Positions 2,103 through 47,690 of a stretch of DNA of 54,784 nt are shown here, piece by piece; the stretch's first letter is position 1, and every line of letters begins with the position of its first letter. The notes under the pieces were generated by a model, which saw only the letters and a list, made by a program, of their open reading frames with translations, was not told where the DNA came from and did not search any database. Source of the DNA: a virus (taxonomy: Duplodnaviria; Caudoviricetes); the IMG/VR virus record IMGVR_UViG_3300048851_000236, positions 1 to 54,784 of that record; one strand, written 5' to 3'. The position numbers were made by a program, and so were the translations under genes.

Positions 2103-2673
2103 CAACCGCCACTCCTTGGTTCCGGATTTCGGTAAGGGCTTCGATTGCCCTGCTCTGTGCGATGCCAGTGCCCTTGGCGATGACCTCCAGCGCCTCCATG
2201 GCCACGTTGAGCGGGCTTTTCCTCTGCGTCGGGGCGCCGGTCAGCAGCCCCAGCTTCTCCCCACTCCGGAAGAGCTTGATGATCGGATAGTATTCCTGGG
2301 GCCAGGAAAGGCGCTCGTCGCGCGCATCCCAAAGCCACGCATAGGCCATGCGCAGATCCTGAAAGGCCTCTTGCAACTCGGCCAAGTCGACCGGGCACTG
2401 GTCCGAACCTTTGACGCTAAGCTTCGAACCTTCGGAGTTGAGGTCCGAAGGTTTGCCCGGCCATTCCAGCCCGGCGCCGACGTAGATCGCGCGGCAGAGT
2501 TCCGGAGCCTGCGCCGAATTCACGCCGTAGAAGTTGTGGCCTGGAGCCATGTTCAGGCCCAGGATAGCTATCGGCCCCGCGCCGGTGCTGGCTGCGCCGA
2601 CGACCAAGACATCGCCGTCGTGGTCCCTGAACACGAGGGCAAGGGTCGTCGGCGAGTTGGGTTTCTCGCTCAT
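2095..2673 (-). CDS. Hypothetical phage protein
   Basis: ATG 2673 overlaps the stop of the upstream ORF; protein-like composition. Confidence 0.65.
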   Translation of the reverse strand: MSEKPNSPTTLALVFRDHDGDVLVVGAASTGAGPIAILGLNMAPGHNFYGVNSAQAPELCRAIYVGAGLEWPGKPSDLNSEGSKLSVKGSDQCPVDLAELQEAFQDLRMAYAWLWDARDERLSWPQEYYPIIKLFRSGEKLGLLTGAPTQRKSPLNVAMEALEVIAKGTGIAQSRAIEALTEIRNQGVAVDG

Positions 2674-3200
2674 GCCGGCACCTTCTCGCGGCCAGCGGCC
2701 CGCCACTCCGCGATGTCAAGCATCGCTTCCAGAACCGGCACGCAGGGCGTCAAGCCTGCCTCGCGTGTTAGGCGCAGTGCCTCCGCTACCGATGCGGCGG
2801 GCGCATCTCCGAGGATCTCCCCGATTGATCTCAGGTTGAACCCATTGATCCAGAGGGCATTCAGCACCGCTGACGCAACTTCATCCTCTGCCAACTGAGC
2901 CACACCCAGCGACCGCAGCGTGTCTGCTATGGTGTCAAGGAGGGCGCCATTATCGCCCCTGCGCCGTTGCCCCTCGAATGACGCTTCCAGACCATCCTGC
3001 ACGCGCATGGTCTGCGTGACGGAATGAAGTGAAATCTGAGCGCGGCGCATGGCCGCTCCGTACGCCTTGGCCTCTGGATCGCGCGCGCGAAGCAGGGCGT
3101 CGGCCTCGCTTCCTAGCAGCTTCTGAGCCAGCCAGAGATCCAAGGTGGAGACATTGGCGAAGTAGCGTTGGCGAAAGGCGGCGAAGCTCTTCGAGGTCAT
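2670..3200 (-). CDS. Hypothetical phage protein
   Basis: ATG at 3200 with GGAG upstream; ATGA overlap downstream. Confidence 0.65.
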   Translation of the reverse strand: MTSKSFAAFRQRYFANVSTLDLWLAQKLLGSEADALLRARDPEAKAYGAAMRRAQISLHSVTQTMRVQDGLEASFEGQRRRGDNGALLDTIADTLRSLGVAQLAEDEVASAVLNALWINGFNLRSIGEILGDAPAASVAEALRLTREAGLTPCVPVLEAMLDIAEWRAAGREKVPA

Positions 3201-5324: not shown

Positions 5325-6311
5325 CTACCCGCCGATGCTCCGGCTGATCCAGATCAGGCGGCCGAGCACAATGACGCTGCCTTCCTCCACGCCAGTGGAG
5401 GAGGCATAGGCAGGGTTGTCGCTGCTGATCGTCAGGGTCTTGGTTTTCCAGTCACGGGTGATCCGCTTCACCTGCACTTCGTAGCCGGAGGTAATGACGT
5501 ACAGCCCGTCTCGCCCAATCTGGCGGATGGACCGGTCAATGAGCACCAAGTCGCCGTGCTGCAAGGTCGGGGCCATACTGTCGCCCGACACCTTCACGAT
5601 CGCCAGCTGGTTCGGCTCCGCACGGGTGAGGGTCCGAAGCTGGTCAACGCCGAAGAGCGTCCACGCTTCCGGCTTGGCGCCGTCATTGTCAAGCAAGCCA
5701 GCGTCCGCCAGCACCGTGGCATCATAGATGGGCAGCGAGACATAAGCCTGACCGTGATGCTCGATACTTGGGCCGGCTGCGGGGACAAGCTGGTTTGTCT
5801 GGGTGCCAGTCTCGGCGACGGGCCCGCCTACAACGTCACCATCGGCGATGGAAGTCCCAGGATCGGACCGCCCAAACAGAATTGCGGAGCGGTTAACGTG
5901 GAGAACAGCGGCCAGCTCGTGGATTTCCCGATCGGAGGGTTTGCGCTCTCCTATCTCTATTCGCTGCAGCTCCTCCGGCGGTAGGCCGACGGCCAGAGCC
6001 AGATCAACGATGCTTTTGCCGCGGATTTCTCGGAGCCTGCGGACCCTCTCGCCCATACGCCGAGCGGGGATCCTTGGCGACCTTCCATGACCTTCCTCCT
6101 CCGCAGAGCCAAGCAACTCATTGACCGACTTTCCCATAGCGTCCGCGAGTGCTCGCAGCGTTGCCCCGCGAGGGCTCTGTGATCGGCCGCTCAGGATCTG
6201 AGAAACCCCTTTTTCATTCAGCCCGGCCCTGAGCGAAAGCTCGCGTTCGGACATCCGGTTGGCGTCTAACCACTCGCGGATCTGGGTCTGAAGCAGGTTC
6301 TTGTCACTCAT
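5325..6311 (-). CDS. cI: CI-like repressor: two XRE HTH domains plus S24 autopeptidase
   Basis: HTH1 SERELSLRAGLNEKGVSQIL, HTH2 SIVDLALAVGLPPEELQRIEIGERKP; S24 motifs VSGDSMAP and VQVKRI. Confidence 0.92.
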   Translation of the reverse strand: MSDKNLLQTQIREWLDANRMSERELSLRAGLNEKGVSQILSGRSQSPRGATLRALADAMGKSVNELLGSAEEEGHGRSPRIPARRMGERVRRLREIRGKSIVDLALAVGLPPEELQRIEIGERKPSDREIHELAAVLHVNRSAILFGRSDPGTSIADGDVVGGPVAETGTQTNQLVPAAGPSIEHHGQAYVSLPIYDATVLADAGLLDNDGAKPEAWTLFGVDQLRTLTRAEPNQLAIVKVSGDSMAPTLQHGDLVLIDRSIRQIGRDGLYVITSGYEVQVKRITRDWKTKTLTISSDNPAYASSTGVEEGSVIVLGRLIWISRSIGG

Positions 6312-7463: not shown

Positions 7464-8725
7464 GCGCCACCCTCCGTACCCGCGACGGGTCGTTCTCCGC
7501 GGTGGCGGCGCACCATGCTGGCGTGGATGCCCGGCTCGGCACTGTGCTGGTCGATCTTGATGACGTGCTGGATTGGGCCGAGGCGCAGAAGCTCCCTCTC
7601 GTTCATGGCGAGGCGCCGGCCAATGCTGTGGCCCGTGTCAATGTCTTGCGCCGAGAGTACGAGCTGCCCCTGTTCCGGTTGAAGCAAAAGGCCGGGGCTG
7701 CTCGGCAGGTGCCGGCAGGAGCCGGCAGGACAACCGTAGCTCGGCAGGCTGCCCCCGTGCTGGCAAGCCCGGCAGCACGGACCGTGACGGCGGCACCTGC
7801 CGAAACTACCGCGATCCCGGTAGTTGATCCGGCTCCCACAGTCGGCGGCAAGTCTCATGGTGAGATAGCGGGAATTCCCGCTATCGCCTCCACCGAAGAC
7901 GAGCTTCTGTCCCTGGTGACCGACTACGACGGCACCAAGACAGGCCTTGTCACACCTGCGGTGGCGCGCTGGCTCCTGGCCCTGAACACTGGCAATCGCC
8001 CCATGCAGAAGGGCGCCGTGGATCGCTTCATTGGCATCCTGCGGGACGGGCAGTGGATCAACACCGGGGAGGCGATTATCGTCTCCAAGGAAGGCGTCCT
8101 GAACGACGGGCAGCATCGGCTGGCGGCGATCCAGGAGAGCGGCATCCCGGCCCCGTGCGATGTCCGCTTCGGCATTGCTCGCGCGGCCTTCATTGCTACC
8201 AACCAGGGGCTGCGGCGCACGACGGGGCAGGCGCTGGCGCTCGCTGGCGGCAAGCATGCCTCGGCTCAGGCAGCGGTGGCGAGGCTCTTATGCCACTACG
8301 ACGCCCGGCAGATGGCCCGCGCCCAGATGCAGGTCGAGCCCGCCCAGGTGATCAAGGTGGTGGCGGACAATCCGCAGGTCCTGCAGGTGGTTGAGGCGCA
8401 GAAGAAAGGCCGCTTCGCTCCGTCGCGAACGGCGCCGGTGGGCATGATCCTCTCTGTGGCGGCCCGCACCGTACCGATGGAGAAGGTGGTCTCCTTCCTC
8501 CATGTCCTCGACACCGGCTTGGCCGATGACGAGACCAACCCCGCCCGCCGGCTCCACGTCCGCCTTCGCGATGCTGCGATAGCTCGCGAGCGTCTGTCCC
8601 AGATCGACATGGCGGCCCTGACGGCCCGGGCTTGGAATGCTTGGCACGCTGGCAGAACCCTCCAGCATCTGCGCATCGACGGCGACGACCGGACGAGCAG
8701 CGGCTTCCCGGAGGTGGCCGCCTGA
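7460..8725 (+). CDS. ParB/Srx-like (DGQHR motif) phage protein
   Basis: NTGNRP...GQW...GEAI...LNDGQHRLAAI motif. Confidence 0.75.
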   Translation: MSATLRTRDGSFSAVAAHHAGVDARLGTVLVDLDDVLDWAEAQKLPLVHGEAPANAVARVNVLRREYELPLFRLKQKAGAARQVPAGAGRTTVARQAAPVLASPAARTVTAAPAETTAIPVVDPAPTVGGKSHGEIAGIPAIASTEDELLSLVTDYDGTKTGLVTPAVARWLLALNTGNRPMQKGAVDRFIGILRDGQWINTGEAIIVSKEGVLNDGQHRLAAIQESGIPAPCDVRFGIARAAFIATNQGLRRTTGQALALAGGKHASAQAAVARLLCHYDARQMARAQMQVEPAQVIKVVADNPQVLQVVEAQKKGRFAPSRTAPVGMILSVAARTVPMEKVVSFLHVLDTGLADDETNPARRLHVRLRDAAIARERLSQIDMAALTARAWNAWHAGRTLQHLRIDGDDRTSSGFPEVAA

Positions 8726-9033
8726 TGTCCGGCTTCCAACTCAAGGATATGACGGGGAACCTGTTCCGCAACGACCGCGCGACCAGCCCGAAGCATCCCA
8801 GTCACCGCGGCACCCTGCTGATCGACGGCAAGACCTACGAGGTTGCGGCGTGGATCAAGGAAGGCGCGCGTGGGCGGTTCTTCTCCCTTCAGGTGACCGC
8901 CCCGAAGGAAGGCGCGGCGCCGGTAGCCGACGGTGCGCCGCGGCGTCGGACGCCCGGAGAGTACCCGGAGCCGCCGAAGAACAAGGGCGGCCCCCGCCGG
9001 CCGCTCAGCAATCGCGAGGACATTCCATTTTGA
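8725..9033 (+). CDS. Small ssDNA-binding-like protein (DUF736-like) with SSB-type acidic tail
   Basis: GNLFRND...HPSHRG...VAAWIKEG...FFSL pattern; C-terminus EDIPF. Confidence 0.65.
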   Translation: MSGFQLKDMTGNLFRNDRATSPKHPSHRGTLLIDGKTYEVAAWIKEGARGRFFSLQVTAPKEGAAPVADGAPRRRTPGEYPEPPKNKGGPRRPLSNREDIPF

Positions 9034-9044
9034 CGGGCGGGCAC

Positions 9045-11702
9045 ATGAGCGCGAGCGATCCCATCAGCGCCATTCGTCTGCGGCTGCTGGCGAATAGCTA
9101 CGAGCCCATCCCAGTGATCGGGCCTGATGCGCCAGGCGCTTCCCCTGGCAAGCGTCCGACCTTGAGTGGCTGGCAGACCGTGCCCGTCACCCCGGATGCG
9201 ATTTCATCCTGGCGCACTGGCTCTCAGCGCGCCTGCGTCAACACCGGCCTGCGGTGCGGTCTGCTGGCTGGCATCGACATCGATGTGACCAATCAGTCCT
9301 TGTCCGTCGACCTAGAAGATCTGGCGGTCACGATCTTCGGTGAGACGCCGCTCAAGCGCGTCGGCAAGGCCCCCAAGGTCTTGCTCTGCTATCGGTTCGC
9401 CTCGACGGGCTCCAAGATGGAGACCAAGGAGTTCTTCCTGCCGGATAGCAGCAAGGCCCAGATCGAGATCCTGGCCCAAGGTCAGCAGTTCGTCGCCTAT
9501 GGCATCCACCCGGAGACCCGGCAGGAATACGACTGGCCAGTGGCCGGCCCGGACGTGGTGCCGGTGCATGACCTGCCGGAGATCAGCTGGGACGCGGTGC
9601 GGGCCTTCCTCGACAACGCCACGGTCCTCATCAAGCAGGCTGGCGGCAAGACGAAGGATGAGACCGAGGGGCGAGCCACTGCGGCGCGGCAGGTGCCCCC
9701 ACTTTCTCGCCCAATAGCCACCCTGCGGCAGGCCGCATCCGGCGATGACTTCTTCCGCCAAGTCAATGCGGCCGCCCTGCAGAACATCGGCCCGTGGATC
9801 ACCGCCCTCTTCGGCGACCGCGCCCGGCAGCAACCCGGCACCGGCGCCTGGCGCGTCCGGTCGGCCGACCTGAACCGCCGCCTCGAAGAGGATCTGTCCA
9901 TCCATCCGGTGGAGGGGGGCAGGGACTTTGGTGAGGAGAAGAGCTGCAGCGCCATTGATGTCGTGATCGAGCATGGCGGCGCCGCGGATCCCCAGCAGGC
10001 TGCCCTTTGGCTGTGCGAGCAGCTGCGCATCGCTCCTGAAAGCCTCGGCTGGCGCCAGAAGCAGATCTTCCGGGAGCCTGAGCGGGTGCAGGCGAAGGCG
10101 GGCGCCATCAATCCGCCGGCTCCGCCGTCCTGGCCGGAGCCGATCGATTTCCTCGCGGATGGGGATCTGACGGGCGCGCCTGAACTGAAGCCCCACCACA
10201 TTCCGGCCGCGCTCTATGACTTCGTGCGCGACACAGCGGAGCGCATGGGCGTCGACCCTGCTGCGGTGGCCCTGGCTGCCATCGTCTCATGCTCTGCGGT
10301 CGCGACTGATGATTGGAGGCTTCAGCCGAAGCGCCTGGACGACACATGGTTCGAAATGCCCCGGCTCTGGGGCGCCATTGTCGGTGATCCGTCGATCCTG
10401 AAGACGCCGGTCATCGCAGCATGCACCAAGCCGATCGACGCGCTGGAGATCGCGGCCAGGGAGCGTCACACCGAGGCGATGCGGACGTTCCGTCAGCAGG
10501 AGGTTGACTACAAGAAGGCGGTCAAGTCGGCCGAGAAGGGGGATGGCCCTCCAGCGGGTGACCCACCGCGCAAGCCTCGGCTGCAGCGATACATGGTCGA
10601 GGGCACCACGGTTGAGGCCCTGTCCGAAGCCCTGCGTGACGACGACGAGGCGAAGATGGAGGCCCCAGCCCGGAAGGTGCTCGTCCGCCAGGACGAGATG
10701 TCGGAGTGGGTCGGCGGCATGGACCGGTACAAGTCCGGGGGTGGCGGAGGATCCGACCGCGGCGCGTACCTCCGCCTGTACAATGGAAGCCGTTACACGG
10801 TGGACCGGGTGATGCGCGGCAGCTTTGCCATCCCGAACTGGTCCGCCTGCTTCCTCGGTGGCATCCAGCCGGGCCCCATCCAGAAGATCGCTTCCAACGC
10901 GGAGGAAGACGGGCTCCTCCAGCGCTTCATGTACTGCGTGCCCGCCGGTCAGGCGCGAGGGCAGGACCGGCGGCCCAACCATGAGGCACGGAAGCGGTAC
11001 GAGGCTGTCATCGCCGCCATGACGCAGCTCCGTCCGACCAAGGAGTTCGAGGATGGCTCCGTGACGCCGGTGACACTGCATGAGGTTGGACACGAGGCGC
11101 GAGAGAGCATCGACAACCTCGCGGAGCTGATGAAGGGGCTGCCCGATACCTCGCCGCGCCTGTTCGCGGCCTACGGCAAGTGGCCTGGCCTCTTCGCCCG
11201 CCTCACGTTGACCTTCCATCTGATCAACGTCGCTGATGCGCGAGCCCGGCAGGCGCCGGCGCCAGTGCTTCACGTTGTGCCGGCCGAGACCGCGCGGATG
11301 GCGGCGGCATACATGGAGCAGATCCTGCTGCCGCACCTGCAACGGGCTGATGCCCTGATGTTCGCCACCAAGCAGACAAGTCACGCGCGGTGGATCGCGG
11401 GCTTCATACTGGCGCGGGGCAAGGAGCGGGTCGCTGCCCGGGACATCATCCAGGCATACCGTGACCTCCGGGCGCCAGAGACGCGTTCGACCCTGCTTCA
11501 GGTGATGCAAACGCTCACGATGATCGGCTGGGTCATGCCGGAGGAGCCGCCCAATCCGACCCGGGAGCCGGCCGCTTGGGCAGTCAATCCGGCGGTGCTG
11601 GAGAACTTCACGGCGCGGGCTGAGAAGGAGCGTCAGCGCCGCAAGGAAGCCCAGGACCGCATGGCAAAGATCATCCGCAGCAAGGCTGAGGTGATCCGCT
11701 GA
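9045..11702 (+). CDS. Replication protein: N-terminal prim-pol domain plus DUF3987/YfjI-like helicase region
   Basis: GKRP...NTGLRCG...GIDID prim-pol motifs; IVGDPSILKTP degenerate Walker A, QDEM Walker B, GGIQP, DGLLQRF. Confidence 0.85.
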   Translation: MSASDPISAIRLRLLANSYEPIPVIGPDAPGASPGKRPTLSGWQTVPVTPDAISSWRTGSQRACVNTGLRCGLLAGIDIDVTNQSLSVDLEDLAVTIFGETPLKRVGKAPKVLLCYRFASTGSKMETKEFFLPDSSKAQIEILAQGQQFVAYGIHPETRQEYDWPVAGPDVVPVHDLPEISWDAVRAFLDNATVLIKQAGGKTKDETEGRATAARQVPPLSRPIATLRQAASGDDFFRQVNAAALQNIGPWITALFGDRARQQPGTGAWRVRSADLNRRLEEDLSIHPVEGGRDFGEEKSCSAIDVVIEHGGAADPQQAALWLCEQLRIAPESLGWRQKQIFREPERVQAKAGAINPPAPPSWPEPIDFLADGDLTGAPELKPHHIPAALYDFVRDTAERMGVDPAAVALAAIVSCSAVATDDWRLQPKRLDDTWFEMPRLWGAIVGDPSILKTPVIAACTKPIDALEIAARERHTEAMRTFRQQEVDYKKAVKSAEKGDGPPAGDPPRKPRLQRYMVEGTTVEALSEALRDDDEAKMEAPARKVLVRQDEMSEWVGGMDRYKSGGGGGSDRGAYLRLYNGSRYTVDRVMRGSFAIPNWSACFLGGIQPGPIQKIASNAEEDGLLQRFMYCVPAGQARGQDRRPNHEARKRYEAVIAAMTQLRPTKEFEDGSVTPVTLHEVGHEARESIDNLAELMKGLPDTSPRLFAAYGKWPGLFARLTLTFHLINVADARARQAPAPVLHVVPAETARMAAAYMEQILLPHLQRADALMFATKQTSHARWIAGFILARGKERVAARDIIQAYRDLRAPETRSTLLQVMQTLTMIGWVMPEEPPNPTREPAAWAVNPAVLENFTARAEKERQRRKEAQDRMAKIIRSKAEVIR

Positions 11703-11878
11703 TGTTGTCATGTTTCCTAGAAACATGCCCCAGGACAGGGAGAGAGATGAGCCCCCGAGTGTCAGAGAATGTTGTCATGTTTCCTCGCGCGTGTGGAACA
11801 CCAAGGCATTTCAGCTCTCCTCCTTCCTTATTCTTTTTCTCTCTGTTCGGAGCGCGTTTCCTAGGAAACATGACAACA
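11702..11878. repeat. Iteron-type replication origin candidate
   Basis: ATGTTGTCATGTTTCCT at 11702 and 11769, inverted copy AGGAAACATGACAACA at 11863-11878, pyrimidine/AT-rich tract between. Confidence 0.7.
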
Positions 11879-13368: not shown

Positions 13369-13397
13369 TTGACCCACCCGCACTGAGGCCACATATT
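13369..13397 (+). promoter_or_regulatory. Late promoter (pR'-like)
   Basis: TTGACC-N17-CATATT. Confidence 0.65.
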
Positions 13398-13418
13398 CGC
13401 GGAGGTGCATTGCGCCTA

Positions 13419-13452
13419 GAGCCCCGGAAGCCTCCGCTTCTGGGGTTTCTTC
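13419..13452 (+). terminator. Intrinsic terminator (tR'-like)
   Basis: GAGCCCCGGAAGC-CTCC-GCTTCTGGGGTTTC followed by a T-rich tract. Confidence 0.7.
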
Positions 13453-16713: not shown

Positions 16714-18435
16714 ATGGGTTTCCTGTCACGCCTGCTGGGGCGGGAGGAGAAGTCTGCGCCGCGCTACGGCTCGCTGGAGCTGTTCCGCGACCTGCTGACC
16801 TGGGGGCGCTCCTCCAAGGCTGGCGTGACCGTCAACACTGAGACGGCCATGCAGGTAACGGGCGTCCTTGCCGGTGCCCGCGTGCTGGCCGAGGACGTGT
16901 CCGGCCTGCCACTGCGGATCTACGAGCGCCGCGGAACGTCGCGCGTGGCGCTGGATGATGAACTTCAGGCGCTCCTGGACATGCCGAACGAGTGGCAGAC
17001 CGGGCAGGAGCTGCGCGAGCAGCTGATGCTGCATGCGGTGCTCGCTGGCAACGGCATCGCCTGGAAGAACGTCGTCCGCAACCAGGTGGTGGAACTGCTG
17101 CCGCTCCAGCCGGGGTGGGTGACGACGGAGCAGCGCAAGGATTGGGGTATCGTCCATCGCGTGCGCTTGCCGGATGGCACGACATTCGACCTCAAGTCAT
17201 CCGAGGTGGTGCATCTTCGTGGGCCGAGTTGGGCAGGGTTCAGCGGCCTGGAGGTGATCCGGCTGGCTCGGGAAGCCATTGGCCTGTCGATCGCAACCGA
17301 GGCGGCGCATTCCACGCTGCACTCGAATGGGCTCCATACCTCGGGGCTGTATTCGGTCGAGGGCTCCCTACAGAAGCCGGACTATGACCTGCTGCGGGCT
17401 CACATCGAGGCCAACTTCATCGGTGAAGAGAACCGCGGCAAGCCGCTGATCCTGGACCGCAATGCCAAGTTCACCCCGATCAGCATGACCGGCGTGGACG
17501 CGCAGCACCTGGAGACGCGGCGTTACCAGATCGAGGAGATCGCGCGGGCGCTGCGGGTGTTCCCGCAGATGATCGGCCACACCGACAAGGCCAGCACCTT
17601 CGCGTCCGCCGAGGCCTTCTTCCTGGCACATGTGAAATACAGCGTCCTGCCCTGGGTCAACCGCTGGGAAGGGGTCATCAAGCGCGACCTGATCGGCCGT
17701 GACCGCCCACGGGTCTTCGCCAAGCACAACGTCGCGGCCCTGGAGCGGGCGGACATCAAGACCCGCTACACGGCCTATGGCCAGGGCATCAAGGACGGCT
17801 GGCTGCTGCGCAACGAGGCGCGCGGCTGGGAAGAACTGGATGAGATCGACGGCCTCAGCGAGCCCTTGCAGCCGCTGAACATGGCGACGCCGGATCAAGC
17901 CGCGCAGGAACAGGACACGGGAGGCGAGCCGAGCAAGGGCCGCCGCCCTTTCGCCGCTGAGGAGCGCGCGAGGACCTTCCTCCGGGACGCGCTGGGGCGC
18001 TTCGCCAGCTTCGACAGCATGCTGGCGGCCGTCCTCGCGGCGGTGCATCCCACAGGCGCCCTGGCCCGTATCGGCAAGCTGTCGAAGAAGGACCGGGCAG
18101 GGCTCAAGGCGGCTGGCCTCCGCTGGTCTGGCGGCACCATTCACGCTGAGGATCGGGTCCTGAAGAAGGCCATGCGTCAGGTCGGCACCCGGAAGCCAGC
18201 TACCGCGGCTGATCTGCGGGCCATCCCCTCGGTCATGCGGCCATCTGGGGGCAAGAGCTATATCGACCGGGCGAACGGCACACTGGTGCGGGTCCGGCCT
18301 GCCGGAGACGCGGAGGGGATGGTCGTGAAATACGTGATCCGCCCCTCGGCGCCGCAGGGCGGCAACCGTCTGGTAACGGTGCAGCGGATGCCGGCGGCGG
18401 CCATCGGCAACACGACGCAATACGAACCAATCTGA
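16714..18435 (+). CDS. HK97-family portal protein with C-terminal ~180-aa extension (putative RNase-fold domain)
   Basis: GNG, EVVHLR, EIARALRVFP, NEARGWEEL, QPLNM portal motifs; extension begins with RDALGRF. Confidence 0.93.
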   Translation: MGFLSRLLGREEKSAPRYGSLELFRDLLTWGRSSKAGVTVNTETAMQVTGVLAGARVLAEDVSGLPLRIYERRGTSRVALDDELQALLDMPNEWQTGQELREQLMLHAVLAGNGIAWKNVVRNQVVELLPLQPGWVTTEQRKDWGIVHRVRLPDGTTFDLKSSEVVHLRGPSWAGFSGLEVIRLAREAIGLSIATEAAHSTLHSNGLHTSGLYSVEGSLQKPDYDLLRAHIEANFIGEENRGKPLILDRNAKFTPISMTGVDAQHLETRRYQIEEIARALRVFPQMIGHTDKASTFASAEAFFLAHVKYSVLPWVNRWEGVIKRDLIGRDRPRVFAKHNVAALERADIKTRYTAYGQGIKDGWLLRNEARGWEELDEIDGLSEPLQPLNMATPDQAAQEQDTGGEPSKGRRPFAAEERARTFLRDALGRFASFDSMLAAVLAAVHPTGALARIGKLSKKDRAGLKAAGLRWSGGTIHAEDRVLKKAMRQVGTRKPATAADLRAIPSVMRPSGGKSYIDRANGTLVRVRPAGDAEGMVVKYVIRPSAPQGGNRLVTVQRMPAAAIGNTTQYEPI

Positions 18436-18440
18436 AGGAA

Positions 18441-18539
18441 TTCCACCGGGTGAGGGGGCGCCACATCCCCATCCGTCCAACGGCCCGAGGGCCAAGCGAC
18501 GCGTCGGTATAGCGACTTTCCGGGCGTCACCCGGTGGAA
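18441..18539 (-). ncRNA. Cloverleaf (tRNA-like) structured RNA candidate
   Basis: Perfect 13-bp closing stem TTCCACCGGGTGA/TCACCCGGTGGAA enclosing three hairpins; promoter ends just before the 5' arm. Confidence 0.65.
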
Positions 18540-18544
18540 ACCGA

Positions 18545-47233: not shown

Positions 47234-47442
47234 CCCCCATTGTGAGCCAAGGGGCCGCAAATGAGGTGGCGGCCTGCGGATTTCTGCCATCTGGCGGATA
47301 CCGCTGGTCCCGCACCGGGCGCCGGGGACCTTCATGTCGCATTCCGCGCGGTACAACTCAGAAGTGTCTGGCGTTTTCATTCCGCGCAAGTTAGCGTCTG
47401 AACCGGATACTTCGCGACGCTCTCCGGTGGGCGCAGCTTAGA

Positions 47443-47486
47443 GACAGCCCGGCAGGACCCCCGTCCTGCCGGGCTGTCGCCTTTTC
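47443..47486 (+). terminator. Strong hairpin/intrinsic terminator
   Basis: GACAGCCCGGCAGGAC-CCCC-GTCCTGCCGGGCTGTC followed by GCCTTTT. Confidence 0.75.
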
Positions 47487-47690
47487 GGGAAGGGGCTGGT
47501 GGGCTAAGGCCGCGCCGCCATCGTCCACACCCCTTCAAGGCCCGGCCCGGACCGATCCAGCGGATGCTGGCGCCGGGTGCTCAAGCCTGTGCTGCGGCGG
47601 CGGGTTTCCGGCATTCAGCCGAGGCACCCATGCCAGCGCCGCCACGGCGGCCGCGCTGCCGGCCTCGATCCCAGGAACGGCGCCGCGCCA

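Follow-up and report, generated by a model that had tools for sequence, protein, structure and literature searches.

The spacer between the portal and prohead protease genes of an HK97-like temperate prophage raises the question of what kind of element its long inverted repeat encloses and on which strand that element acts. The DNA analyzed, referred to here as the window, is the whole 54,784-nt stretch of IMG/VR record IMGVR_UViG_3300048851_000236. The original prediction read the element on the minus strand as a cloverleaf RNA other than a tRNA that could be an RNase P substrate, like the P1 c4 and P4 CI RNAs of phages. The element is a discrete structured nucleic-acid element of 86–99 nt in which a closing helix surrounds three hairpins, and it seems to belong to a small, undescribed structured-RNA family, termed here the portal-3′ element. 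Our data document it at four levels, namely existence, conservation, covariation, and genomic linkage.

Architecture and Genomic Setting

The element occupies 18441–18539 (99 bases) of the 148-nt spacer between the two genes. A perfect 13-bp inverted repeat, with arms at 18441–18453 and 18527–18539 that lie 73 nt apart, forms the closing helix. Read on the plus strand, the 5′ arm is followed by hairpin A (18454–18470), in which GGGG and CCCC close a 9-nt loop containing the conserved motif GCGCCAC, and by a conserved 3-nt junction linker, ATC (18471–18473). The middle arm (18474–18501) consists of a 4-bp base, a 4 × 4 internal loop, and a 4-bp tip with a tetraloop. Hairpin C (18503–18516, GTCG/GTATAG/CGAC) and a conserved 10-nt linker, TTTCCGGGCG (18517–18526), lead into the 3′ arm. 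Hairpin A also contains the palindrome GGCGCC, and its loop is able to pair with the 3′ linker at 18522–18526 (GCGCC/GGCGU, 5 pairs), a pairing that is invariant in 3 of 3 sequences. The minus strand of this interval matches the sequence written out in the original prediction exactly, the closing stem is perfect over 13 bp as claimed, and all 29 cloverleaf pairs are canonical. The description of a discrete element built from a closing helix and three inner hairpins was therefore correct.

Upstream of the element lies the portal gene (16714–18435, plus strand, 573 aa; PHROG portal, 3.1e-88; Pfam Phage_portal, 4.1e-78). The Pfam domain covers aa 52–373, and approximately aa 405–573 (17926–18432, plus strand) make up a rare C-terminal extension domain. 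Downstream, the plus-strand prohead protease gene (240 aa) spans 18572–19306 together with its Shine-Dalgarno sequence AAGGAGA (18572–18578), its ATG being at 18584; both signals were read from the sequence. The product matched the PHROG head maturation protease (2.4e-60) and Pfam Peptidase_S78 (1.3e-34). Since the flanking genes are all on the plus strand, this gene order implies that the plus strand should be transcribed during lytic growth. Ordinary hairpin-plus-U terminators of the phage are located 3′ of the capsid gene (20677–20698, canonical) and before the tail-tube gene. Upstream of terS, a late promoter-like site is followed by a terminator, and the putative late promoter (13369–13397) has the −10 hexamer CATATT.

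The minus strand folded at −53.4 kcal/mol (z −3.4; 0 of 200 shuffles as good) and the plus strand at −49.3 kcal/mol (z −2.5; 3 of 200). After GC correction, these strands ranked 75th and 158th, respectively, among 5469 sliding 100-nt windows, within the top 1.4–2.9%. Perfect inverted repeats of at least 13 bp with a loop of 3–200 nt numbered 7 in the window and turned up in 37 of 100 dinucleotide shuffles (mean 0.5). Others in the window, at 7702–7803 and 25337–25419, fall within open frames and are unrelated to the element. By its sequence alone, the element thus stands only moderately beyond chance, and both the shuffled repeats and the modest stability ranks are what a functionless inverted repeat in leftover spacer might display. 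Such an origin is nevertheless hardly credible, as neutral DNA would not be expected to contrast with its flanks in conservation or to carry compensatory changes in the homologue L080.

Conservation, Covariation, and Further Copies

Compared with the Pseudoroseomonas prophage L025, the element differed at 2 of 99 bases, against 364 of 3001 (12%) across 17000–20000, a region in which only 2.3% of 99-nt windows carried two or fewer differences. A named strain, Pseudoroseomonas ludipueritiae DSM 14915, holds a near-identical copy (2 of 99 bases differ). Two metagenomic relatives, X5 and X6, are roughly 85% identical to the window. X5 contig 19, spanning 18331–18747, contained 50 differences, none of which, among the 40 listed, fell in 18441–18539; flank differences at 18434, 18440, 18540, 18543, and 18544 came right up to the element ends. 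X6 contig 27, spanning 18442–18585, contained 9 differences, and all 8 listed ones were outside the element. The soil contig X3 contig 3 carried only the inner core (18454–18522) in a different context, with 11 differences and 1 gap.

Model R2 matched a distant homologue at L080:3025–3118 (61.4 bits, E 1.5e-10), which likewise lies behind a portal gene encoding the rare C-terminal domain (28% amino acid identity). In this comparison, 97.6% of 82 pair cells were paired and 7 of 29 pairs had changed on both sides, a count that represents one independent lineage in an alignment fitted to the model. Both-side changes averaged 2.3 in shuffles, with 1 of 500 reaching 7, and amounted to 0–2 in slid controls. 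The closing helix, 13 bp in the window and 9–10 bp in L080, had 5 of 13 pairs double-changed with pairing retained. At the base of the middle arm, 2 of 4 pairs were double-changed, and the tip was swapped for a different, shorter hairpin top. Closing-stem columns were identical in 12 of 25 cases, compared with 31 of 36 for the unpaired columns. Identity reached 8 of 9 columns in the hairpin A loop, 3 of 3 in the ATC linker (18471–18473), 8 of 8 in the stem and 5 of 6 in the loop of hairpin C, and 10 of 10 in the TTTCCGGGCG linker. This combination of constant loops and linkers with co-varying stems suggests that a specific partner, whether a protein, an RNase, or a tertiary RNA contact, is probably involved, in place of a plain hairpin.

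Because the element is better conserved than its flanks and its helices are kept by compensatory changes in a distant homologue, its reality is settled; on this comparative evidence, it is real and under selection. The original prediction had named a lack of compensatory changes among homologues as grounds for giving it up, and it survived here because such changes exist in L080. The closing helix, hairpin A loop, ATC linker, hairpin C, TTTCCGGGCG linker, and portal domain were all present in the window, L025, and L080. In HK97-like temperate phages of Alphaproteobacteria, family members start 3–5 nt past the stop of portal genes encoding the rare C-terminal domain. The sister spacer of L026 and L027 contains a different structured element that did not match model R2, and the window element was absent among the 12 matches of model R1 at E ≤ 10.

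Searching 401 family genomes with the 148-nt spacer gave 9 genomes at E ≤ 0.01, of which only G001 was real and provided the sole full-length match. The 8 short matches (L049–L056) were judged to be chance; they are GC-rich, lie mostly in open reading frames, and have no closing stems. Among 401 class genomes, 2 had matches and only one of these was full-length; the match in G446 (64 nt, 78%) was also judged to be chance and sits inside a reading frame with what is, by eye, presumably a Nudix/MutT-type motif. In IMG/VR, the arms-with-gap pattern and the two patterns for the middle arm, which is the variable part of the element, returned 0 matches. The conserved-block patterns retrieved 1 contig and then 7 loci, each on a contig of its own. 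L081, on the L080 contig, was the only real one among the 7; the other six had neither hairpin A nor a closing stem. Loci L082, L084, L085, and L087 share identical flanking sequence. Phage and plasmid collections contained no match to the element. A metagenome protein scan yielded 15 loci, all at most 61% identical and none with the element, and a viral scan with the portal C-terminal domain of the window gave no match. Protease relatives occurred in 4 of 401 family genomes, and portal C-terminal-domain relatives occurred in 1 of 23 genus genomes. Most other protease relatives appear to lack such a spacer because a long upstream open reading frame ends near the expected protease start. In literature titles and abstracts, no RNA element between portal and protease genes was found.

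These searches bear on whether the element acts as DNA or is a mobile relic, that is, a cruciform, a protein-binding site, or a landed miniature inverted-repeat element. Perfect 13-bp terminal inverted repeats, conservation edges that coincide exactly with the repeat ends among the differences listed, the GGCGCC palindrome of hairpin A, and an isolated inner core in X3 contig 3 would all fit such an origin. However, a transposon family would be expected to preserve its terminal repeats while the interior drifts; this element has co-varying arms around a preserved interior. The element is single-copy in G001, with no other full copy in the 401 family or 401 class genomes, none besides L080 in five IMG/VR pattern scans, and none in the plasmid and phage collections, and no target-site duplication was seen by eye. 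We therefore regard a DNA-level or mobile identity as distinctly improbable. A dispersed REP/MITE-type repeat was rejected as well: matches other than the one full copy in G001 measured 14–19 nt, the arms differ between homologues, and the record holds no repeat copy of the element elsewhere.

Relation to Known RNAs and the Working Strand

As originally predicted, the element is not a tRNA, ARAGORN having found 0 tRNA or tmRNA genes in the window and in four related loci (L025, L080, L026, and L027). The proposed tRNA-like proportions were not upheld. Its dimensions depart from those of a tRNA, which has a 7-bp acceptor stem and a 7-nt anticodon loop (here, closing stem 13 bp, "T" loop 9 nt, middle loop 4 nt), the stem length is not conserved (13 versus 9–10 bp), and the minus strand has no RCCA and no T- or D-loop motifs. 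With Rfam 15, whose families include the C4 antisense RNA, pRNA, Y RNA-like RNAs, and self-cleaving ribozymes, nothing in the whole window reached the gathering score, none of the 4 matches at E ≤ 10 within 18000–19000 overlapped the element, and L080, L025, and L026 gave 0 matches at E ≤ 1. With no overlap at E ≤ 10, no phage antisense-RNA family of that library was therefore matched. The suggested likeness to c4 and CI was not borne out by complementary target sites elsewhere in the phage, which remained at chance level (17 found versus 15.9 expected, 3 versus 1.4, and 4 versus 1.9). According to PMC11143913, a coaxial acceptor/T stack of about 12 bp serves as the measuring device in bacterial RNase P substrates; the closing stem with its stacked 4-bp hairpin departs from this length, amounting to 17 in the window versus 13 in L080. 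In such substrates, a 3′ R-C-C-A behind the stem pairs with the P15 loop. Here, the bases after the stem are TTCC on the minus strand; on the plus strand, they are A/G-C-C in the window, L025, and X5/X6, but CGCC in L080.

Several other identities were considered for the locus. An intrinsic terminator scan flagged only a small minus-strand hairpin (18566–18549), not the element, and no U-run directly follows the closing stem on either strand. The terminator or REP-type match that the original prediction had offered as its own disproof did not appear, since the element is single-copy in its host genome and has no U-tract. A diversity-generating retroelement was rejected, with no second copy of 17900–18445 and no RVT_1 match in a record that CheckV rates as 67% complete. 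Integron attC sites were not indicated, as no R″/R′ core sites were seen by eye. Coding across the element was also rejected; the protease frame is open there and has no start codon, and coding constraint is argued against because third-position change is totally absent from the element. Frameshifting or readthrough at the portal stop was dismissed, with no slippery site seen by eye and in-frame readthrough ending after 6 codons.

The exact cloverleaf drawn on the minus strand reached −48.4 against a minimum of −53.4 kcal/mol, with a probability of 9e-6. Its "D" and "T" hairpins had an ensemble probability of about zero on that strand, and their mirror hairpins were favored on the plus strand, where hairpin A reached 0.86, the middle-arm tip 0.98, and hairpin C 0.72. 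Wobble pairs likewise favored mostly the plus strand. Hairpin A gains G·U pairs on the plus strand only, in both the window and L080; the two one-sided changes in the closing helix are U·G and G·U on the plus strand; and 5 of 5 one-sided changes in the L026/L027 sister spacer stay paired through plus-strand G·U. In a small plus-strand hairpin shortly 5′ of the protease ribosome-binding site (18549–18566), a U·G pair of the window becomes G-C in L025, and the corresponding hairpin of L026/L027 has G·U pairs valid on the plus strand only. An exception is X3 contig 3, where an apparent closing-stem mismatch on the plus strand would be a G·U pair on the minus strand, as read from 30-nt loose ends. 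The two strands are on a par in consensus energy (−43.1 versus −43.5). With the wobble pairs mostly favoring the plus strand and a promoter-like site on the minus strand, the latter is not established as the working strand that the original prediction took it to be.

Our tentative preference is for a sense-strand element that marks a boundary, of processing or of stability, within the late mRNA. It would act as RNA in the sense (+) late transcript, folding directly behind the portal stop codon, and would separate the low-copy terS-terL-portal part of the message from the high-copy protease-capsid part. Cleavage might take place in or beside the element, for example, in the AU-rich linker at 18544–18549. 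The fragment upstream of the cut would then have a very stable structure at its end that resists exonucleases, and the one downstream would reach as far as the canonical terminator at 20677–20698, which follows the capsid gene. In this scheme, we infer which strand acts, that it is cleaved, and that expression is affected. As a bolder reading, which we think unlikely, the conserved junction together with the loop-linker pairing GCGCC/GGCGU would be a new type of self-cleaving ribozyme core acting on the late mRNA. The missing spacer in most other protease relatives, the ordinary terminators behind the capsid gene and before the tail-tube gene, and the promoter-like site with its terminator upstream of terS fit a boundary, as do the plus-strand gene order, folds, and wobble pairs. 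Several points weigh against it. Conserved loops and linkers would be superfluous in a plain processing or stability hairpin. Three spacers that otherwise differ each contain a promoter-like site aimed at the element from the opposite strand. In the window, the minus strand has a slightly better fold than the plus strand, the consensus energies favor neither, and X3 contig 3 seems to have a closing stem that would pair better as minus-strand RNA. The small hairpin that would open the downstream fragment is not clearly conserved in X5/X6 or L080.

The promoter-like site makes an antisense small RNA gene a close rival, a possibility that we hold in only slightly lower regard. A sigma-70-like consensus match, TTGAGA-17-CATATT (18545–18573, minus strand), points into the element. 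Its −10 hexamer at 18550–18545 lies 5 nt ahead of the closing stem, on the same bases that form the AU-rich linker on the plus strand. From such a spacer promoter, a minus-strand RNA would start at the first bases of the closing stem, and its 5′ and 3′ ends would pair in that stem, the 3′ end arising by trimming as far as the paired region. Its single-stranded loops and linker would act in trans as a seed, as a protein-binding site, or against the late mRNA, and a prophage with silent late genes could still express this RNA. The site is the only promoter-like one in 17500–19500 (1 found, 0.1 expected), and it shares the −10 hexamer CATATT with the putative late promoter at 13369–13397. Counterparts are TTGAGA-17-CATAAT in L025 (10/12), TTGCAG-17-TATATT in L080, and TTGCTT-17-TAAATT in L026/L027, so that 5 of 5 loci (window, L025, L080, L026, and L027) have the same layout of a 17-nt spacer and a −10 placed 5–7 nt before the stem. 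Among the differences listed for X5/X6, 18545–18552 is unchanged and 18540, 18543, 18544, and 18553–18555 vary. The better fold z-score of the minus strand, the suitability of conserved loops for a trans-acting RNA, and a minus-strand helix GUCGC/GUGGC that is possible in 3 of 3 sequences also agree with an antisense RNA.

Other features of the site are less favorable to an antisense RNA. Across the whole window, promoter-like sites are not enriched (5 found versus 5.7 expected), the −35 hexamers of types other than that of the window are weak (3/6), and the TTG that the window, L025, and L026/L027 share is complementary to the ribosome-binding region of the protease gene. In addition, none of the lineages has a minus-strand U-tract terminator behind the stem, and both the mostly plus-strand wobble pairs and the minimal probability of the proposed cloverleaf count against this strand. 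The version of the antisense RNA put forward originally, a tRNA mimic matured by RNase P in the manner of P1 c4 and P4 CI, seems very doubtful to us in view of the varying stem length, the missing minus-strand RCCA, the lack of Rfam overlap, and the absence of excess target sites.

The Portal Domain and Comparison with Known Systems

Among 1.84 billion representative proteins, only 3 are related to the C-terminal extension of the portal protein, a domain of the kind found fused to phage virion proteins as an injected or counter-defense effector. In one relative, the rare domain adjoins the anti-CBASS domain Acb1. Its co-occurrence with the element raises a further explanation, in which the element is the RNA partner of this domain and the domain is a divergent relative of PBECR (phage BECR-fold) RNase/RNA-binding domains. 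The domain would bind or cut the RNA for autoregulation, for its own neutralization, or for RNA loading onto the portal. A sense RNA located 3–5 nt behind the stop codon would therefore be met in cis by the newly made domain. Such an RNA would be either an RNA "immunity" or regulator at the position of an immunity gene, or a portal-bound structural RNA that echoes pRNA; we think either role unlikely.

Genomic linkage speaks for a portal partner. Domain and element occur together in the window, L025, and L080, even though the domain is only 28–30% identical in L080, and L005/L006, with a protease 82–83% identical, are without both. L026/L027 combine an extension of 20–22% identity with a different structured element at the same place. 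Their extensions matched Pfam PBECR3 weakly (E 0.046 in L026 and 0.0085 in L027), and P0004 has an Acb1 domain (6e-39) between its portal and C-terminal domains. PMC5512222 describes portal and MuF proteins to which PBECR and 2H domains are fused. However, the PBECR matches are below the Pfam cutoff, and the window's own domain has none. The AlphaFold model of the domain is poor (pLDDT 58.6), Foldseek gave nothing against the PDB at E ≤ 0.001, and a profile search of PDB sequences with the domain gave nothing meaningful. The linkage amounts to three lineages, and the RNA loops remained constant while the protein fell to 28% identity, all of which keeps an RNA partner of the portal domain unlikely.

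Structured RNAs in phage morphogenesis operons are poorly charted, and this element carries the signature of a functional RNA without a match to any described family. An element that sets how much portal is made relative to capsid would be a new solution to a general assembly problem. As an antisense RNA made by the prophage, it would be a regulatory RNA hidden in the "silent" late region, and as a partner of the portal domain, it would form a new RNA-protein pair in virion biology. With the near-identical copy in DSM 14915, all three readings are therefore testable at the bench.

The P1 c4 and P4 CI RNAs are phage RNAs of approximately 80–100 nt with a closing helix formed from their ends and functional hairpin loops, and they are matured by RNase P. 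The element resembles them in its size, its inner hairpins, and its closing helix made from both ends. Unlike them, it resides in a late morphogenesis operon, outside any immunity region, and it has neither an excess of complementary target sites nor an overlap with Rfam, in which the C4 antisense RNA family is, we take it, RF01695. The P1/P7 case is among the references of PMC11143913.

With operon processing elements, the element shares a stable structure between co-directional genes of a polycistronic message. In phage T7, RNase III sites are intercistronic structures that separate message parts needed in different amounts. The element differs from these in having a four-helix junction with sequence-conserved loops, where they have a simple irregular hairpin, and in the R-C-C after the plus-strand stem, which occurs in the window type only and is absent from L080. 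RNase P and RNase E cuts in operon mRNAs likewise appear among the references of PMC11143913.

A closing helix and a multihelix junction also recall the pRNA of phi29, and the element is tied genetically to an unusual portal domain. The pRNA, transcribed from an early promoter of its own at another genomic site, attaches to the outer end of the connector and works physically with the portal; the element, by contrast, has no Rfam match. Effector cassettes, in which a polymorphic toxin is paired with an immunity gene or, in type III toxin-antitoxin systems, with an RNA, offer another parallel. The downstream partner here is neither an open reading frame nor a tandem repeat, in contrast to such cassettes. 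As in them, lineages that differ in the variable C-terminal domain also differ in the sequence immediately following it.

Position and fold of the spacer element

The element at 18441-18539 lies in the 148-nt spacer that separates two plus-strand genes, portal and prohead protease, of an IMG/VR provirus of 54,784 bases and ~66% G+C. The portal gene (16714-18435, 573 aa; Pfam Phage_portal, 4.1e-78) lies directly upstream, with 5 nt between its stop codon and the start of the closing stem. Downstream, the protease gene (Peptidase_S78, 1.3e-34) begins at ATG 18584 behind AAGGAGA at 18572-18578, and its frame is open backwards over the entire spacer and into the last portal codons (18401-18583), with no start codon before 18548. 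The major capsid gene comes next, small and large terminase lie upstream of the portal gene, and adaptor, tail terminator and tail tube lie downstream of the element, all on the plus strand. A minus-strand CI-like repressor (5325-6311) and a primase/helicase (8637-11702) indicate that the phage is temperate. In the gap between primase/helicase and a minus-strand open reading frame, the 16-nt TGTTGTCATGTTTCCT occurs three times at 11703-11878 (two direct copies and one inverted), and these copies look like operator sites. Upstream of the small terminase (13369-13450), a strong terminator hairpin (13 pairs plus a U-run) comes no more than ~20 nt behind a plus-strand promoter-like TTGACC-17-CATATT, an arrangement that we take to resemble the lambda late promoter/terminator with antiterminator read-through.

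The minus-strand sequence given in the original prediction matches the window exactly, and all 29 pairs drawn in it are canonical. Across 73 intervening nt, 18441-18453 and 18527-18539 pair without a mismatch as the 13-bp arms of an inverted repeat. Perfect inverted repeats of at least 13 bp with a 3-200 nt loop arose in 37 of 100 dinucleotide-shuffled windows (mean 0.5), and the real window holds seven. The fold energy was -53.4 kcal/mol on the minus strand (z -3.4; equaled by 0 of 200 shuffles) and -49.3 kcal/mol on the plus strand (z -2.5; 3 of 200), ranking 75th and 158th, respectively, for G+C-corrected stability among 5469 sliding 100-nt windows. By sequence alone, support for excluding chance is only moderate; comparison with relatives decides that the element is more than chance. 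The most stable fold of the window on both strands is at 47381-47540, in a gene-poor stretch past a low-GC block at 44-46 kb, and includes a perfect 16-bp hairpin (47443-47478). Perfect inverted repeats at 7702-7803 and 25337-25419, with 13-14 bp arms and 55-76 nt between them, lie within open reading frames and are unrelated to the element in sequence.

The view that the element is not a tRNA held, as neither a tRNA nor a tmRNA was found in the window or related loci, which rules out both. Rfam 15 gave no match at E ≤ 10 overlapping the element, none in the window at the gathering score, and none at E ≤ 1 in three related loci. Nor is the element a terminator or REP-type repeat, the identities named beforehand as refuting. 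It has no U-tract, unlike the phage's textbook intrinsic terminators, canonical hairpin-plus-U structures within the late operon just after the major capsid gene (20677-20698) and just before the tail-tube gene (22569-22590). A dispersed repeat was rejected, with a single full copy in the Pseudoroseomonas ludipueritiae genome; scans of 401 family genomes and 401 class genomes gave no second one, and the short matches there were judged to be chance. The element was absent from the plasmid and phage collections searched, and IMG/VR pattern searches yielded only one further element, at the distant locus L080. A DGR target hairpin was also ruled out. Over 64 nt, positions 18466-18529 share 78% identity with a reading frame of another alphaproteobacterium (L079, G446:C31:71406-71468), which, read by eye, we take to encode a Nudix/MutT-like motif; the element in the portal's frame would read ...VQRPEGQATRRYSDFPGV..., and this match was judged to be chance. 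None of the papers turned up by literature searches dealt with such an element in title or abstract, and it fits no described family. The family is small, comprising three sequence types plus three known only as metagenome contigs.

Conservation and covariation among relatives

The prophage of P. ludipueritiae DSM 14915, whose protease is 97% identical, differs from the window at 2 of 99 element bases. The portal gene's last 100 nt differ at 14 positions and the surrounding 3 kb at 364 of 3001, and only 2.3% of 99-nt windows in these 3 kb carry two or fewer differences. Two further relatives came from contigs of public metagenome runs (soil, straw and plant). One contig (X5 contig 19) spans 18331-18747 with 50 differences and 2 gaps; none of the 40 differences listed falls inside the element, while 18434, 18440, 18540, 18543 and 18544, immediately at its two ends, are among them, and the other 10 lie most simply beyond 18703. 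A second (X6 contig 27) spans 18442-18585 with nine differences, and the eight listed are all outside the element. The edges of conservation are thus those of the inverted repeat, and the unit it bounds stays near-constant while its flanks drift. An ancestral shared insertion would drift like the flanks, so a near-constant unit means selection on the unit itself. An element without function fits these data poorly and is very improbable.

The L080 element is 86 nt long and begins 3 bases after the stop codon of its upstream gene. A covariance model of the window and P. ludipueritiae elements detected it in a 188-kb search, with 61.4 bits and E 1.5e-10. Its closing stem is 9 bp and differs from the window's; the hairpin A loop motif, ATC linker, hairpin C and 10-nt 3' linker are the same, and the middle arm differs in sequence with its pairing kept. 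In the three-sequence alignment, 97.6% of 82 pair cells hold standard pairs. The compensatory changes on which the original prediction had staked itself are present: both members of 7 of the 29 pairs were exchanged with pairing kept (five in the closing helix, two at the middle-arm base), a count from a single independent lineage, with an alignment fitted to the model and helices first derived from the window itself. Column shuffles gave a mean of 2.3 two-sided changes and reached 7 in 1 of 500, and sliding partners by 1-3 columns gave 0-2. Identity between the window and L080 was 31 of 36 in unpaired columns (hairpin A loop 8/9, ATC linker 3/3, hairpin C loop 5/6, 3' linker 10/10) versus 12 of 25 in closing-stem columns. 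Co-varying stems combined with fixed loops are characteristic of a functional single strand that folds. A DNA-level element or mobile relic is a poor fit to the data and quite improbable.

Association with the portal C-terminal extension

The portal's C-terminal extension (~aa 405-573; 17926-18432) is very rare, with three relatives found by HMMER among 1.84 billion representative proteins. One of these is the L080 protein (P0004, 755 aa), annotated as hypothetical in Allostella (Stella) sp. ATCC 35155, whose gene is present in IMG/VR. In it, a portal domain is followed by an Acb1 anti-CBASS phosphodiesterase domain (6e-39) and then by the extension (about 2500-3022 of the locus) at 28-30% identity. 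Two prophages of a single Roseomonas elaeocarpi genome (L026 and L027; protease 78-79% identical) have extensions 20-22% identical to the window's, with weak, sub-threshold matches to Pfam PBECR3 (E 0.046 and 0.0085). An R-[DG]-x-x-G-[RK]-F motif ahead of the extension domain is common to all versions.

The portal-protease spacer of these two prophages holds a different structured element (L026:2873-2957; L027:2874-2957), with identical 12-bp closing stems, a long hypervariable arm and a short hairpin. Of 33 predicted pairs, 4 differ between them at both positions, and these compensatory changes keep the hypervariable arm's hairpin; all five one-sided changes stay paired as plus-strand G.U. 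The covariance model of either type did not find the other type, leaving homology between the types without support. Among relatives whose portal has no extension, the closest (L005 and L006, with 82-83% protease identity) have no spacer either, and in most other protease relatives a long upstream ORF stops near the expected protease start. Extension and structured spacer are replaced together, and the element is not a normal feature of this gene pair. The RNA could be a partner of the portal's own C-terminal domain, which fits this linkage and the known fusions of PBECR and 2H domains to portals (PMC5512222). Attempts to confirm the domain's fold failed, and this reading is unlikely.

Working strand and candidate roles

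Judging from gene order, the plus strand should be transcribed within the late operon. The three hairpins are favored there (probabilities 0.86, 0.98 and 0.72); on the minus strand, where the original prediction had drawn them, they are not, with ~0 for two of the three. Hairpin A has extra G.U pairs on the plus strand only in both the window and L080. As plus-strand pairs, the two one-sided changes in the closing helix read U.G and G.U, and the wobble pairs of the Roseomonas elements are valid only on that strand. Tentatively, we read the element as marking a boundary of processing or stability within the late sense mRNA, where it would fold right behind the portal stop codon and split low-copy genes (terminase, portal) from high-copy genes (protease, capsid), with the capsid terminator closing the segment downstream. 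That its loops are conserved implies a specific partner, not a plain hairpin.

A close rival is an antisense small RNA, possible yet doubtful, that starts at a promoter-like site and is closed by its own end-helix. The site (TTGAGA-17-CATATT, 18573..18545, minus strand) is the only sigma-70-like one in 2 kb (0.1 expected) and points at the element, with 5 nt between the end of its -10 and the stem. This layout recurs, always with 17 nt between the hexamers and 5-7 nt to the stem, in P. ludipueritiae (CATAAT), in L080 (TTGCAG-17-TATATT, in an otherwise unrelated spacer) and in the R. elaeocarpi prophages (TTGCTT-17-TAAATT). In the X5 and X6 contigs, the -10 bases are unchanged and adjoining bases vary. 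The minus strand of the window element also folds slightly better, and the closing stem of a third contig (X3 contig 3), read from 30-nt loose ends, seems to have a wobble valid on the minus strand only. Across the whole window, promoter-like sites are not enriched (5 found versus 5.7 expected), and TTG in three of four -35 hexamers derives from the protease ribosome-binding region on the opposite strand. On the plus strand, the AU-rich -10 bases could serve as a single-stranded site of the RNase E type. Consensus folding gave -43.1 (plus) versus -43.5 (minus), with one invariant extra helix particular to each strand.

The RNase P substrate proposed in the original prediction is a sub-case of the antisense RNA. 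The tRNA-like proportions on which it drew are not conserved, the closing stem being 13 bp in the window versus 9-10 bp in L080. Precedent for it exists in PMC11143913, which covers RNase P model hairpins, a 12-bp measuring rule and an RCCA contact.
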